A DNA stretch of 64,000 bases from Candidatus Heimdallarchaeum endolithica (GCA_021513715.1 CP084167.1:3040001-3104000), one strand, 5' to 3'. Positions 39,664-43,546 are shown, counted from the stretch's first letter. The notes: generated by a model not told the origin, from the letters alone. Translations and numbers: made by a program.

Positions 39664-40329
39664 ATGACTTTATATTCCTCATTTGTAGACAGTTTAATCA
39701 TTTATATAACTGAAGGAATTGCATTATCATTGTTTGTTTGTACTTTCTTTATTAAAAAGAGAAAAATTAGAAAAATAATTAATAGTGTAGGTGGAGGATT
39801 GATATTTATTCTATTTGTTTTCGGAATATTTTACGATCTTAAAGGTTTTTTAGTCTTGTATTCACTTTTGACAATAATAGTTTTGCTTTTAAAAATGATA
39901 ATCGAAGATAAAAGAGTAAAATATATATGGCTTACACTCGCCTCTTTTGTTTTAACAGCTTTTAGTGTAGAAACACACCTAGAAATAATGTTTTTGTTGA
40001 GTTTATGTTTAAGTATTATTCTATTTTTATCATTTACAGCAGTTTCATACTATGAAACAAGTAAAAGAAAAAGAACTGAGAAAGAAGAATTTAGTGTTTT
40101 TTCATTGATTCTAGAAACAATTTTTTCTCTGTTCCTATGTGCTCCACTTGTTTTTTTAATTGTAACCTATGACTATTCTCAACAAAGTGTTAATCTAGTA
40201 AAAGAAGTAATAAACACTGGGATAGATGGAAATTTGACCATAATTCTTGGACTTTTCCTGATAATGTTTGTTTTCTTGTTTATTTATGACTTTGTAGAAA
40301 ATAGGAGTGAAAAAGAATGGTATCAGTAG
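39664..40329 (+). CDS. Multi-TM membrane protein, possibly divergent NuoJ-like
   Basis: Multiple hydrophobic segments and position before a NuoK-like gene. Sequence similarity is weak. Confidence 0.45.
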   Translation: MTLYSSFVDSLIIYITEGIALSLFVCTFFIKKRKIRKIINSVGGGLIFILFVFGIFYDLKGFLVLYSLLTIIVLLLKMIIEDKRVKYIWLTLASFVLTAFSVETHLEIMFLLSLCLSIILFLSFTAVSYYETSKRKRTEKEEFSVFSLILETIFSLFLCAPLVFLIVTYDYSQQSVNLVKEVINTGIDGNLTIILGLFLIMFVFLFIYDFVENRSEKEWYQ

Positions 40330-40583
40330 AAATATACTTCATTTTATGTTTAATTATAATATTCATAGGTTTAATAACTTTTAAACACTATTTAGCAAAT
40401 ATTAAATTTATTTATGGAGTAACAGTAATTTATATTGGGGCTATTTGTCTCTCATTTCTTCTTAATAATGTAAAAGATGAAATCATTTTTGTGTATACTG
40501 GAATATTCTCGATTTTAATATTGATTTTGTTAGCAATAAAGTCACCTGTGTTTGAAGAAAAAGTAAAGGAGAATAGACAATGA
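40317..40583 (+). CDS. 3-TM protein, divergent NuoK/MrpC-like
   Basis: 88 aa. MVSVEIYFILCLIIIFIGL resembles the NuoK N-terminus, but the intramembrane Glu residues are absent. Confidence 0.5.
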   Translation: MVSVEIYFILCLIIIFIGLITFKHYLANIKFIYGVTVIYIGAICLSFLLNNVKDEIIFVYTGIFSILILILLAIKSPVFEEKVKENRQ

Positions 40584-41035
40584 GTAAAAATGAAAGAATA
40601 GTTGAGAAGAAAACTGAAGCAGTATCAGTAACAGAACAAGCAGTAACAGAAGATATGGAAGCGAAAGAAGAAACTTCAAAAAAAGTTGAAAAAGAAAGAA
40701 AAAGTGAATCCCTTGCTTCTAAAATAAAAGAGAAAACGATTAAATTCTTAAATTATCTTTTTGTAACTATATTATACCTAAAGATTATCAAACCCACTTT
40801 TTATGGCTTAAAAATAGGTACAAGTTTTCTGCTAAATTTAGGAAAAAACTTTTTTGCAATCTCTTCAAAGTTTTTTTACAAATTGTATATAGTTGCTAAA
40901 AGAAACATGGAAGAATTATCTTTCTTTGTTCACAGATTTGAACGAGCACCACTTAGTCTTCAAGTATGGATAACAAGTGTTTTTGTTTTTCTATTGATTT
41001 CAATATGGATAGCTTTCGGGGGTAGACTAGAATGA
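40580..41035 (+). CDS. Membrane protein resembling the NuoL C-terminal lateral helix plus last TM
   Basis: Charged N-terminus, amphipathic helix, SFFVHRFERAPLSLQVWITSVFVFLL. Confidence 0.4.
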   Translation: MSKNERIVEKKTEAVSVTEQAVTEDMEAKEETSKKVEKERKSESLASKIKEKTIKFLNYLFVTILYLKIIKPTFYGLKIGTSFLLNLGKNFFAISSKFFYKLYIVAKRNMEELSFFVHRFERAPLSLQVWITSVFVFLLISIWIAFGGRLE

Positions 41036-42510
41036 TCTTTTGGACAATTACAGGAATATATCTCTCAGGAATTTTAATTATTTTCACTTTAGAAAGGTTA
41101 TCTCACTTTATTACAAAACTATTCCCACTATTAAGAGGAAGAATGAGAATTGTTTTTAATTATGTTAATATATTAATTATAATTTGCGCATATATTGTAT
41201 ATTTATATACAGTACATCCTTTTAGTCAGAGTACAGAAGTCTTTGATAAATTTGTTTTTTCACCTTTTTCAAGTATATTTCAAGCTATATCAACTCTTTT
41301 AATCTCACTTACAGGCTTTTTCCTCTTATCAGATGTTGATGAATATAGTAATAAGAGTAAAATAAGTTTTAGTTCATTACTCTTTATACAATATTCTGCA
41401 TTTATTATGTTTTCAGCTATCTCTTGGATTTTTGTTTATTTAGGATTACTAGGTATAATCTCTGGAATAACTTTTATCTTACGAAACATCTATCTAAAAG
41501 AGAATGAAGTAATGAAAGAGCTTCATTCTTTATTTGTGTTTGATGTTTTAAGTTTAGTTTTCCTTTTTATGGGTATTTTATTCTATAATTTGGTTTTTAA
41601 CTCTTTTATAATTCAAACAAATGTAAGAAGCGATTTCTGGGAACTGGAATTGTTAAGTTTCATATTTATACTTTGTTCCAGTTTAATTCTCCTTGAAATT
41701 CCTCCATTTCACTTTAGAAGTTTTTCTGAAATAAATAAAAAACTAAAAACTCCTAAAATTATAACTTTGTTAAAAAAACTAGTTGGTGTGTTTATCATTC
41801 TAAATTTGGTACGTGTAATAGACTTAAATTCCGATTACACGCATTTTTACTTTTTTATTCTTTTGATTCTGGGAGGTATAGTCTCGACATGGGGAGTAGT
41901 TGGAGCAATAAATAAAATGAATATTGATGAATTGCTTGTGTATATTGATTTCTATTATCTTGGTACATTCCTGCTGTTATTATCTAACAATTTTTCTTCA
42001 AGTGCAACTTTTTCTTCAAGAATTGAAAATTATTCAGTACTATTGTTTTTGACCATATTCTTCTTTCTTGTACAAATAGCACAAACAAGTTTGATGAGTT
42101 TGATCTCAAATAAATATTCTATCGATTCTTTAGAAGATTTCTTAAAGGGTGAAAAACTTGAAAAAATAGAAATTTTTCCTTTTACAATCTTACAATTTGC
42201 TGAAATAAGTTTTCCCTTAGCTTTGTCCTATGTATATATCTTTTATTTAAATTTTGAAGAAATAGCAATGCTGTTTTTCATAGTTCTTATATCTGTTAGT
42301 TCACTAAACTTTTTCTTTGGAATATTAAGCGTTATTAGGACAATGTTTTATGCATTGAAAGAAACTTCATCACTTCTAAACGACAAGCGAGTTGAACCAA
42401 ATCTATATATTACAAGTTTTATTTCTTTACTTATTCTTATATTTAACGTGGTTTTCGTAAAGGAAATAGTGACTGTATGTCAAAAAGCAGTTTTTCTATT
42501 TCTATTTTAG
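41032..42510 (+). CDS. Highly divergent NuoN/Mrp antiporter-like subunit
   Basis: 492 aa, about 14 TMs. LEIPPFHF matches K...PFHxW; GVVGAINKMNIDELLVY matches AL.Q.NIKRLLAYS. Confidence 0.7.
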   Translation: MIFWTITGIYLSGILIIFTLERLSHFITKLFPLLRGRMRIVFNYVNILIIICAYIVYLYTVHPFSQSTEVFDKFVFSPFSSIFQAISTLLISLTGFFLLSDVDEYSNKSKISFSSLLFIQYSAFIMFSAISWIFVYLGLLGIISGITFILRNIYLKENEVMKELHSLFVFDVLSLVFLFMGILFYNLVFNSFIIQTNVRSDFWELELLSFIFILCSSLILLEIPPFHFRSFSEINKKLKTPKIITLLKKLVGVFIILNLVRVIDLNSDYTHFYFFILLILGGIVSTWGVVGAINKMNIDELLVYIDFYYLGTFLLLLSNNFSSSATFSSRIENYSVLLFLTIFFFLVQIAQTSLMSLISNKYSIDSLEDFLKGEKLEKIEIFPFTILQFAEISFPLALSYVYIFYLNFEEIAMLFFIVLISVSSLNFFFGILSVIRTMFYALKETSSLLNDKRVEPNLYITSFISLLILIFNVVFVKEIVTVCQKAVFLFLF

Positions 42511-42562
42511 TAGTTTTTGACAATAGGCAAGTTTTTTTAAATACCAAAAAAAATTCTCTATA

Positions 42563-43546
42563 ATGTTTTCTCCCACGAAAAAACTAGATGTAGAGAAAGA
42601 TATAGAAGAAATAAATAATGAACTTGTCAAATTAAAGGATAATGCGCCCTACGATGAAGAAATAGTGAACTTAATAGATGAAGTAATTGAAACTGGAGGA
42701 AAACGAATAAGACCATTAATAACTCTATTATGTTATGAAATGTTCTCTAATAAGAAGAGAAATAACACAATTTTTGCCGCAGCTTGTGCAATTGAAATAA
42801 TTCATAATGCAAGTTTATTAATAGATGATGTCTTTGATAAAGATATTTTTAGAAGAAAGAAAAAGTCCTTTTATCTAAAATTCTCAACTTTCTCTGCTAT
42901 ATCCATGTCGTATTCTTTAAGTAGTTTAGCTTTTGGTTTAGCTCTAAAAACAAAATTGTTAGAAATTGTAGAAGAACTTACAAAAGCAACTCAAAATCTA
43001 GCTGTTTCTCTATTTCTTGAACAAAAATTCAGAAATGCAACAACAAAAATGACAAAAGAGGAAGCATTACTATTAATAGACAGAAAAACTACCACTTTAT
43101 TTGAAGCAGCTTCAGTAATAGGTGTGTTGTTAGACCAAGCAACACAAGAAGATAGAGAAAAAATGAAAGAATTTGGTAAATATTTTGGTAGAGCTTTTCA
43201 ATTGAGAGATGATTTGCTTTCTATTATTGCTACAGAAGAAGAAATAGGAAAAACAGGTGTAATAACTGATATAAAAAATAGAATACAATCGTATATTATT
43301 CTTGTAGCAATGGAACAAGCAGTAGAAGAAGACAAAAAGAAATTGGAAGATTATTATATAGAGAAAAAGGAATTTGATGTTGAAGAAATAAGGTTTTTAA
43401 TAAAAAGGTCTGGTGCAGTAAGTACAGTAGTAAAACTAGTAAATGAATATATTGAAAGAGCAATGTCAATATTGAAAAGTTATCCTGAATCTATAGCAAG
43501 AAACAAATTGATAGAAATAACTCGATTTTTAAGTTTAAATTTATGA
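42563..43546 (+). CDS. trans-Polyprenyl diphosphate synthase
   Basis: GGKRIRP, DDVFD..RR, KT..LFE, FQLRDD. Confidence 0.92.
   Translation: MFSPTKKLDVEKDIEEINNELVKLKDNAPYDEEIVNLIDEVIETGGKRIRPLITLLCYEMFSNKKRNNTIFAAACAIEIIHNASLLIDDVFDKDIFRRKKKSFYLKFSTFSAISMSYSLSSLAFGLALKTKLLEIVEELTKATQNLAVSLFLEQKFRNATTKMTKEEALLLIDRKTTTLFEAASVIGVLLDQATQEDREKMKEFGKYFGRAFQLRDDLLSIIATEEEIGKTGVITDIKNRIQSYIILVAMEQAVEEDKKKLEDYYIEKKEFDVEEIRFLIKRSGAVSTVVKLVNEYIERAMSILKSYPESIARNKLIEITRFLSLNL

Follow-up and report, generated by a model that had tools for sequence, protein, structure and literature searches.

The locus considered here lies in a 64,000-nucleotide stretch (the window, at its full length) of Candidatus Heimdallarchaeum endolithica, GCA_021513715.1 CP084167.1:3040001-3104000, that is positions 3,040,001-3,104,000 of a 3.33-Mb single-contig genome. 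At 39664-43546 of the window stand four genes for membrane proteins, ordered like nuoJ-K-L-N of respiratory complex I and followed by a gene for a polyprenyl synthase. An earlier reading of the DNA (the original prediction) took them for a complex I membrane arm stripped of its proton-pumping residues and put to another use, and the question raised by the locus is whether these genes still pump, are decaying or have acquired a different function. The analysis described below indicates, with a probability of roughly 0.6, that they are a lineage-specific, extremely diverged copy of nuoJ-K-L-M-N which is under selection and has a non-canonical role. The proteins encoded by open reading frames (ORFs) 1 to 4 are called J', K', L' tail and N' after the positions that they occupy.

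The cluster consists of five uninterrupted plus-strand ORFs, the first four of which overlap by 13, 4 and 4 nt (Table 1). Both the coordinates and the overlaps are exactly those first given, and the gene after ORF4 is a polyprenyl synthase by its Pfam match, as had been claimed. Hydropathy analysis gave approximately 6-7 transmembrane (TM) segments for ORF1, 3 for ORF2, 1 for ORF3 and 13-14 for ORF4. Single-sequence scans of ORF1-4 matched no Pfam family and produced nothing usable from NCBIfam. Throughout the genome, the canonical genes belonging to PF00361, PF00346, PF00146, PF00420 and PF00499 are all located outside the window, in agreement with the earlier statement that it contains no NuoA-I, NuoM or hydrogenase genes. 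The interval 40001-42000, which coincides with ORF1-4, has the lowest G+C content of the window (26.6% vs ~30-35% elsewhere), and this may be due to the Ile/Leu/Phe-rich composition of the membrane proteins.

Table 1 Features of the cluster, with window coordinates and pairwise ratios of nonsynonymous to synonymous substitution (dN/dS)
Feature	Position	Strand	dN/dS	Description
upA	37417..38244	+	0.09	first gene of cluster; signal peptide/N-terminal TM, beta-rich ectodomain, C-terminal TM anchor
upB	38245..39594	+	0.11-0.15	upA paralogue; signal peptide; ectodomain with PKD/Ig-like insertion in short-ORF3 clade; C-terminal TM anchor
ORF1 (J')	39664..40329	+	0.14-0.22	221 aa; 7-helix membrane protein; tentative NuoJ derivative
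ORF2 (K')	40317..40583	+	0.05-0.14	88 aa, 3-TM; probable NuoK derivative
ORF3 (L' tail)	40580..41035	+	0.35-0.46	151 aa; putative NuoL-type remnant, lateral-helix/TM16 region
ORF4 (N')	41032..42510	+	0.14-0.29	492 aa; NuoN/ND2-type antiporter-like subunit
IDS, trans-polyprenyl diphosphate synthase	42563..43546	+	0.01-0.06 (with inositol-phosphate synthases)	327 aa; PF00348 2.1e-49

ORF4 is an N-type antiporter-like subunit. Alone, it gave a single NCBIfam match, co-linear with NDH_I_N (E 0.25, 10 bits), and it does not itself reach the Pfam gathering score; three of 13 members of its family do so for PF00361, the best at 1.3e-11. Only two close relatives were found by a word-indexed homologue search, and no more than 12 relatives, 23-33% identical over their full length, came out of an exhaustive HMMER search of 1.8 billion representatives. 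The closest database proteins are labelled Candidatus Heimdallarchaeaceae. A profile of the family obtained with HMMER (A1) was searched against solved structures and matched cyanobacterial NdhB (6.5e-21, columns 88-468 vs 85-454), plant Nad2 (3e-19), E. coli NuoN (8e-17), MbhH (4.6e-15) and MrpD (1.6e-10), with N-type chains ranking above M-type (4e-7) and L-type (0.014) chains. ESM features gave the same family, as 28 of 30 matches of ORF4 were PF00361 clusters (score 0.95). The Nuo/Mrp homology proposed for the locus is therefore seen at the level of family profiles, at 6.5e-21 to 1e-10 for ORF4 and, as described below, at 4.9e-21 for the long orthologues of ORF3. The suggestion that ORF4 is simply the NuoN of the organism was rejected because a congener has a canonical NuoN as well and because the module has its own genes in the J, K, L and M positions.

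Antiporter-like subunits are defined by a chain of buried Lys, Glu and His residues, and debate continues on the coupling mechanism of complex I. In antiporter modules the residues considered here make up the ion pair (Glu-Lys) and the proton wire (Lys-His-Lys/Glu; PMC11496545). Their positions were checked on NuoN and NuoM of E. coli K-12 and then mapped through the hidden Markov model (HMM) of the ORF4 family; the two mappings, made independently, reach the same HMM columns. The TM5 Glu (NuoN E133, NuoM E144) corresponds to L140 of ORF4 (L/V/I/S across the family), the TM7 Lys (NuoN K217, NuoM K234) to L220 (L/F/Q/S/V) and the TM12 Lys/Glu (K395/E407) to I403, which is in a variable column (I/T/N/E/K/Q/S/Y). 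If the alignment is shifted by one residue the TM12 position becomes Y402, which is also unconserved. The TM7b His of the PFH motif (H224) is retained as H227, invariant in 28 of 28 sequences, and the TM8 Lys (K247) corresponds to K249, with R in 17 and K in 11 of the 28. These two are the only members of the canonical residue set that ORF4 keeps; N' has neither the canonical Glu-Lys ion pair nor the Lys/Glu at which the proton path ends. The same three losses, and the same retention of PFH and the TM8 Lys, had been read by eye in the original prediction, and the profile alignment bears them out.

The nature of ORF3 can be judged from its relatives. A protein of 631-663 aa (L') is encoded between ORF2 and ORF4 in 20 of the 28 orthologous loci, and a profile of these 20 long proteins (A8) matched NdhF (4.9e-21), M. 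smegmatis NuoL (1.1e-14), E. coli NuoL (9e-10, 17-475 vs 6-466) and DabB2 (5.7e-7), L-type subunits outranking those of the N and M types. The TM7 Lys of L' (K238) is invariant, and the TM5 Glu and TM12 Lys positions are hydrophobic. A short ORF3 is present in five loci (the window, L049, L013, L014 and L016). It aligns co-linearly with the final ~100 residues of L' (17-20 long forms aligned) and shares with this tail the invariant residues S68, E75 and Q82, which form an S...E...Q motif just before the final TM segment. When an HMM of the tail was applied to the canonical NuoL of a congener it aligned with residues 614-670 (11 bits, in a search of five sequences only), pairing 'RRFETGFISQYLW' of the NuoL C-terminus with 'HRFERAPLSLQVW' of the window ORF3. 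ORF3 has a K/E-rich N-terminus, an amphipathic stretch (hydrophobic moment, muH, up to 0.48, residues 85-115) and a single TM segment at 122-151, and the latter two are consistent with the architecture expected for a remnant made up of the lateral helix and TM16. As judged from these alignments, ORF3 is the surviving C-terminal tail of an L-type subunit which is still full-length in most relatives, and the idea of a NuoL reduced to its lateral helix and last TM segment fits this picture well.

ORF2 probably derives from NuoK. It has three hydrophobic segments and its position between J' and L' is conserved in 23 loci. Canonical NuoK and NuoJ alignments were assembled from genomes of the phylum; word-indexed searches gave only close Heimdall sequences. 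Comparison by hhalign of the profile of the 23-member ORF2 family (A7) with canonical Asgard and E. coli NuoK gave a probability of 80% (P 1.5e-5) over 42 columns (1-42 vs 9-50), and reversed controls gave <=1.3%. Four of the six top matches in a profile search of the PDB were members of the NuoK family (NdhE, MbhG, ND4L and NuoK), with E values of 1.2-5.8, none of them significant; neither the small nor the enlarged family profiles of ORF1 and ORF2 gave a significant match in the PDB. In the hhalign alignment the canonical G-x-E containing the TM2 Glu of NuoK (E36) is matched by G-V/F-T/x in the ORF2 family. The alignment does not reach TM3 (NuoK E72), and the only acidic residue that the family shows there is a D/E where this segment begins. 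The loss of membrane Glu residues claimed for a NuoK-like protein is seen for TM2 in this alignment; the NuoK identity of ORF2 is probable rather than proven.

The assignment of ORF1 is more tentative. Its AlphaFold2 (AF2) model (predicted local distance difference test, pLDDT, 64) has seven helices, which appear to be laid out as two extra N-terminal TM segments, a NuoJ-like TM1-3 and two further TM segments. Foldseek placed ND6 and NdhG as the top two matches, and ~14 of the top 50 were of NuoJ type, all with E>0.5. With VIA-align, residues 60-133 of ORF1 were superposed on residues 1-76 of E. coli NuoJ (helices 3-5 on TM1-3; Z 8.6, root-mean-square deviation 1.8 Å, 74 residues), and helices 3-5 were also superposed on the NuoJ-like segment of MrpA, residues 628-702 (Z 7.1). 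A match with the TM hairpin of Cox2 (E 0.005) was discarded, having vanished when a larger profile was used. The NuoJ-like character originally ascribed to ORF1 therefore finds backing in gene order, topology and the three-helix superposition of a modest model, but not in sequence or profile comparison. Derivation from NuoJ is suggested by the model and is put forward tentatively.

To establish how widely the module occurs, the ORF4 profile was searched in 301 Asgard genomes. Strong orthologues (E<1e-129) were present in ~25 of the 28 genomes of the window's own family, and in the other 273 genomes only canonical NuoN-type genes were matched, weakly (1e-7 to 1e-32). Nearly all Heimdallarchaeaceae have the module, which turned up in no other group among these genomes. 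The nearest canonical relatives of N' are the NuoN genes that end (H)-J-K-L-M-N operons in sister families.

Gene content was compared across the 28 orthologous loci. The typical form comprises upA, upB, J' (~226 aa), K' (~93 aa), L' (~650 aa), N' (~498 aa) and the trans-polyprenyl diphosphate synthase (IDS). In one genome (G003, locus L097) an additional 495-aa PF00361 protein (4.7e-9) is encoded between L' and N', giving the order J'K'L'M'N', and the five short-ORF3 loci, including the window, have the form J'K'(L-tail)N'. In a quick maximum-likelihood tree rooted on canonical NuoN, which has long branches, G003 is the earliest branch and the loci with a short ORF3, five in number, group together as a clade (support of 99 in the Shimodaira-Hasegawa-like approximate likelihood ratio test, SH-aLRT). 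The simplest history is a single origin from a nuoJKLMN unit, followed by loss of M' and then by one in-frame truncation that left only the tail of L'. Read from these gene orders, the module has been reduced stepwise, from J'K'L'M'N' to J'K'L'N' to J'K'(L-tail)N'.

The genome also contains one canonical membrane set, NuoH-A-J-K-L(597 aa)-M/N(520 aa), which at 2.47-2.485 Mb adjoins HypE/F, HycI and a NuoC-D-I-B module. There is one copy each of NuoH, J and K, and there are only two PF00361 genes. The NuoH anchor and the NuoB/C/D/I genes are all found at 0.66 Mb and 2.47-2.49 Mb, the window being at 3.04-3.10 Mb, and none of the 28 orthologous loci has a linked NuoH or NuoB/C/D/I module. The search for canonical nuo and hydrogenase operons that had been suggested as a check thus led to the set at 2.47-2.49 Mb and to an orphan NuoB-C-D-I group at 0.66 Mb (660521-662991; L022:4522-6992), which has no NuoH or other membrane-arm genes nearby. 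This orphan group was considered as an obligate partner of the module and found to be an unlikely one, as its ~375-aa type of NuoD was found in only ~12 of 31 family genomes, a count that includes incomplete metagenome-assembled genomes in which it may have been missed.

A congener (G026, L048:6726-17042) allows the module to be compared with a full complex I in a close relative. It has a complete K-B-C-D-H-I-L'(497)-L(676)-M(489)-N(479) operon with four antiporter-like subunits, which is absent from the window's genome, and in addition it has the same quartet. The 31 family genomes almost always have two canonical antiporter genes, regardless of which form of the module they carry. The module is independent of canonical Nuo gene content.

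These results bear on the possibility that the module is an accessory extension of the organism's complex-I-like group 4 hydrogenase and supplies the 'missing' third antiporter-like subunit noted for Heimdallarchaeia. The canonical arm of the family does have only two antiporter-like subunits, and N' is of the N type, which is the type that contacts J/K. However, the module brings its own genes in the J' and K' positions, and in relatives also L' and M'; it is unlinked, ~560 kb from the canonical cluster; and it is retained by the congener with the full L'-L-M-N operon. In addition, module size shows no co-variation with the number of canonical subunits, and the coupling residues needed for relay of a signal are absent. 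An accessory role of this kind is considered improbable.

dN/dS was determined for each of the three pairings of the window, L049 and L013 (Table 1). The module evolves several-fold faster than its housekeeping neighbours, yet is clearly constrained by purifying selection. The values for ORF1-4 (0.05-0.46) are far from 1 and the genes are therefore not decaying; the original prediction had taken the preserved frames as a possible sign of exaptation. The contrary explanation is that a respiratory complex was lost and that these genes are its decaying remnants, or pseudogenes in the making. It could draw on the extreme divergence (21-33% identity within a single family), the progressive loss of gene content and the low G+C content of the region. 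Against it stand not only the dN/dS values but also the intact state of all frames in ~27 genomes, dozens of invariant positions and the preservation of the translationally coupled overlaps, and decay is extremely improbable. Absence of Nuo/Mrp homology, presence of the key Glu and Lys residues on proper alignment and a dN/dS near 1, any of which would have spoken against the original prediction, were each looked for and none was found.

The nature of the neighbouring genes is relevant to the possible role of the module. upA and upB adjoin J' upstream in nearly all loci, with upA orthologues (phmmer 1e-27 to 1e-171) directly upstream of the ORF1 region. The two proteins show weak mutual similarity (1e-5 to 1e-9), and an N-terminal 'KWD[YF]SG' and a C-terminal 'TTYG.TNP' motif are common to both. 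No Pfam family matched upA, and its AF2 model (pLDDT 60, beta-rich) gave no fold match with Foldseek, the best TM-scores being ~0.1-0.2. upB matched PF22352, a K319L-like PKD family (5.2e-8). Its orthologues are 246-264 aa long in most loci and 407-454 aa long in the short-ORF3 clade, in which upB has gained a PKD-type insertion. Just upstream of the cluster region, at 35680-36626, three short plus-strand ORFs resemble pieces of a single broken transposase/integrase gene. A scan for sigma-70-type promoters and terminators remained at shuffle level, a sigma-70-type model not being applicable to archaea.

On the other side of the module, the IDS follows ORF4 in nearly all loci and is absent from L021. 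Its NCBIfam matches are of the short-chain/geranylgeranyl diphosphate (GGPP) type. It is one of two such enzymes in the genome, the second being encoded at 2520473-2521264 (2.52 Mb). Both paralogues have the small residues Ala and Ser at -5 and -4 before the first DDxxD ('HNASL.xDD'). The residues at -4/-5 of the first Asp-rich motif (FARM) are identical in the two paralogues and so uninformative about a special chain length for the product of the IDS. dS was compared gene by gene between L049 (7374-15774) and L013 (4400-12782), which are orthologous to 37417-45800 of the window. For the IDS and the two inositol-1-phosphate synthase genes dS is ~0, the sequences being nearly the same, and upA, upB and ORF1-4 have dS values of 0.12-0.24. 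This contrast between ORF4 and the IDS implies a sharp recombination or mosaic boundary between the module and the IDS. In a sister family (G107, L105:77-574) an IDS fragment, matching the window IDS at 2.3e-34, lies directly upstream of a canonical NuoH-J-K-L-M-N operon. Thus the IDS-nuo neighbourhood exists outside the window's family too.

The link with the prenyl synthase that was suggested earlier amounts to conserved synteny, and is weakened by the recombination boundary after ORF4 and by the missing IDS in L021. Taken further, such a link would mean that module and IDS work together in the metabolism or transport of isoprenoids or lipids, for example in handling prenyl-linked or membrane-spanning lipids. 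The IDS is only 52 bp downstream and on the same strand in nearly all loci, inositol-1-phosphate synthases and an HMG-CoA reductase are found in the wider neighbourhood, and the sister family has its IDS next to the canonical operon. The sharp difference in dS, however, points to separate recombination histories, one locus does without the IDS, no lipid-handling domain was found in the Pfam and NCBIfam scans, and all the loci come from a single family, in which synteny may simply be inherited. A role in lipid metabolism or transport is highly improbable.

What, then, does the module do? We infer that its most likely role is that of a non-pumping membrane scaffold or an altered transporter. In the mechanism proposed here, the four proteins would still assemble like the J/K-N end of complex I or the membrane arm of membrane-bound hydrogenase (MBH), and the L tail would clamp N' to J'/K'. 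The assembly would not pump protons by the canonical mechanism; it would be embedded in the membrane as a platform for the two surface-anchored proteins encoded with it, and not be part of a redox enzyme. A specific scaffold function of the module is a tentative proposal, rated somewhat below even odds. In its fullest form, a duplicated complex I arm would have become a rigid, laterally clamped platform that holds, or signals to, upA and upB, with no bioenergetic role, and that is still being minimised; this is possible, but should be regarded with at least as much reserve.

The main competitor for the scaffold is a module that still translocates ions, as a passive channel or as a secondary transporter, and whose function has been modified rather than lost. 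Ions would then follow a rewired path through residues such as K/R249, H227 and E455 of N' and K238 and D154 of L'. Selection on the membrane core is purifying, and isolated antiporter modules are able to conduct protons alone (PMC11496545). On the other hand, the TM8 residue is Arg, a poor proton carrier, in 17 of the 28 members, and the TM5 Glu, TM7 Lys and TM12 Lys/Glu have given way to variable hydrophobic residues. K' has no TM2 Glu in its alignment, and in the short clade the L' core has been deleted together with its sole conserved Lys, the rest of the module being kept. Continued ion translocation is accordingly judged unlikely.

Several points nevertheless weigh against a non-pumping, complex I-derived scaffold. 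The loss of the canonical residues may leave room for another ion path, and E455 of N' is conserved alongside K/R249 and H227 (invariant or nearly so in 28 sequences), as is D154, nearly invariant, alongside the invariant K238 in the 20 L' sequences. The ORF3 tail profile gave no match in the PDB at E<=10, NuoL and MbhI tails included. For ORF1, comparison with NuoJ by sequence gave nothing with Pfam or in the PDB profile search, 9% with hhalign and an ESM atlas score of 0.80, which is the chance level. A three-helix match at Z 8.6 is within the range that helical bundles can reach by chance, and it is for this reason that J' is kept tentative. Finally, it is gene adjacency by itself that suggests a scaffold role for upA and upB, and the assembly, localisation and expression of the module are predictions made from the genes alone.

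With these reservations, a non-canonical role for a diverged nuoJ-K-L-M-N copy can be set against the systems to which its proteins are related. The distal arm of complex I (NuoJ-K-L-M-N / ND6-ND4L-ND5-ND4-ND2) has the gene order that is seen in L097. At the level of profiles, N' and L' are homologous to its N- and L-type subunits, L' is of NuoL-like length with a C-terminal extension, and K' has the size and topology of NuoK with a weak profile match to it; the PFH His and the TM8 Lys/Arg are also retained. Unlike the distal arm, the module has no linked NuoA/H or Q-module genes and has lost the TM5 Glu, the TM7 Lys (in N') and the TM12 Lys/Glu. M' has been lost, as has the L' core in the short clade, and the divergence is such that Pfam misses all four of the window proteins. 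The module is also always preceded by genes for two extracytoplasmic anchored proteins. Heimdall-group complex-I-like enzymes are discussed in the context of eukaryogenesis. Analyses of them count antiporter-like subunits with standard models, and these models miss the module entirely. The module provides a natural, selected, family-wide set of 'dead-axis' antiporter-like subunits, and so a ready-made negative control for models of the proton wire; it also reveals the parts of the fold that are retained purely on structural grounds.

MBH carries a short lateral helix on a small subunit of its own, MbhI, and this helix extends across just one antiporter-like subunit (PMC8165549). The short form of the module resembles the MbhD/E, MbhG, MbhH and MbhI set in having a tentatively NuoJ-like protein, a probably NuoK-like protein, a single antiporter-like subunit and a small protein with a putative lateral helix and a TM segment (PMC8165549), and MbhH is among the matches of the N' profile. 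The short form here, however, arose independently, by truncation of an L-type gene, and no hydrogenase or MrpE/F/G-like genes adjoin the module. ORF3 showed no detectable similarity to MbhI when its tail profile was searched against the PDB, and MBH retains the charged axis. The loci amount to a natural deletion series in which the lateral-helix/TM16 tail of NuoL outlasts the 14-TM core. This parallels MbhI and bears on the clamp role proposed for the lateral helix (HL).

The module shares with the Mrp Na+/H+ antiporter (MrpA-G) homologues of MrpD/MrpA type and a small, probably NuoK/MrpC-like subunit, and the superposition of ORF1 helices 3-5 on MrpA has been described above. It differs in being without the essential Lys/Glu residues. 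No MrpB/E/F/G turned up in the Pfam scans of the cluster proteins, in which no dedicated profile comparison was made.

The proteins are members of known superfamilies; no J-K-L-M-N derivative that stands alone, has been stripped of its charges and progressively minimised, and has extracytoplasmic partners was found in the literature searched. A precedent for PF00361 proteins that work outside a respiratory complex with unrelated partners is given by the CO2-uptake systems (DabB with DabA; NdhD3/F3 with CupA), and DabB2 is among the matches of the L' profile. DabB keeps its charged residues, unlike the module described here, which has no carbonic-anhydrase-like partner and whose partners are extracytoplasmic. 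If the module does serve the two surface proteins it represents a new use of the complex I membrane arm and, if the proposed platform exists, it would be the first natural example of a complex I P-module in a purely structural or cell-surface role.

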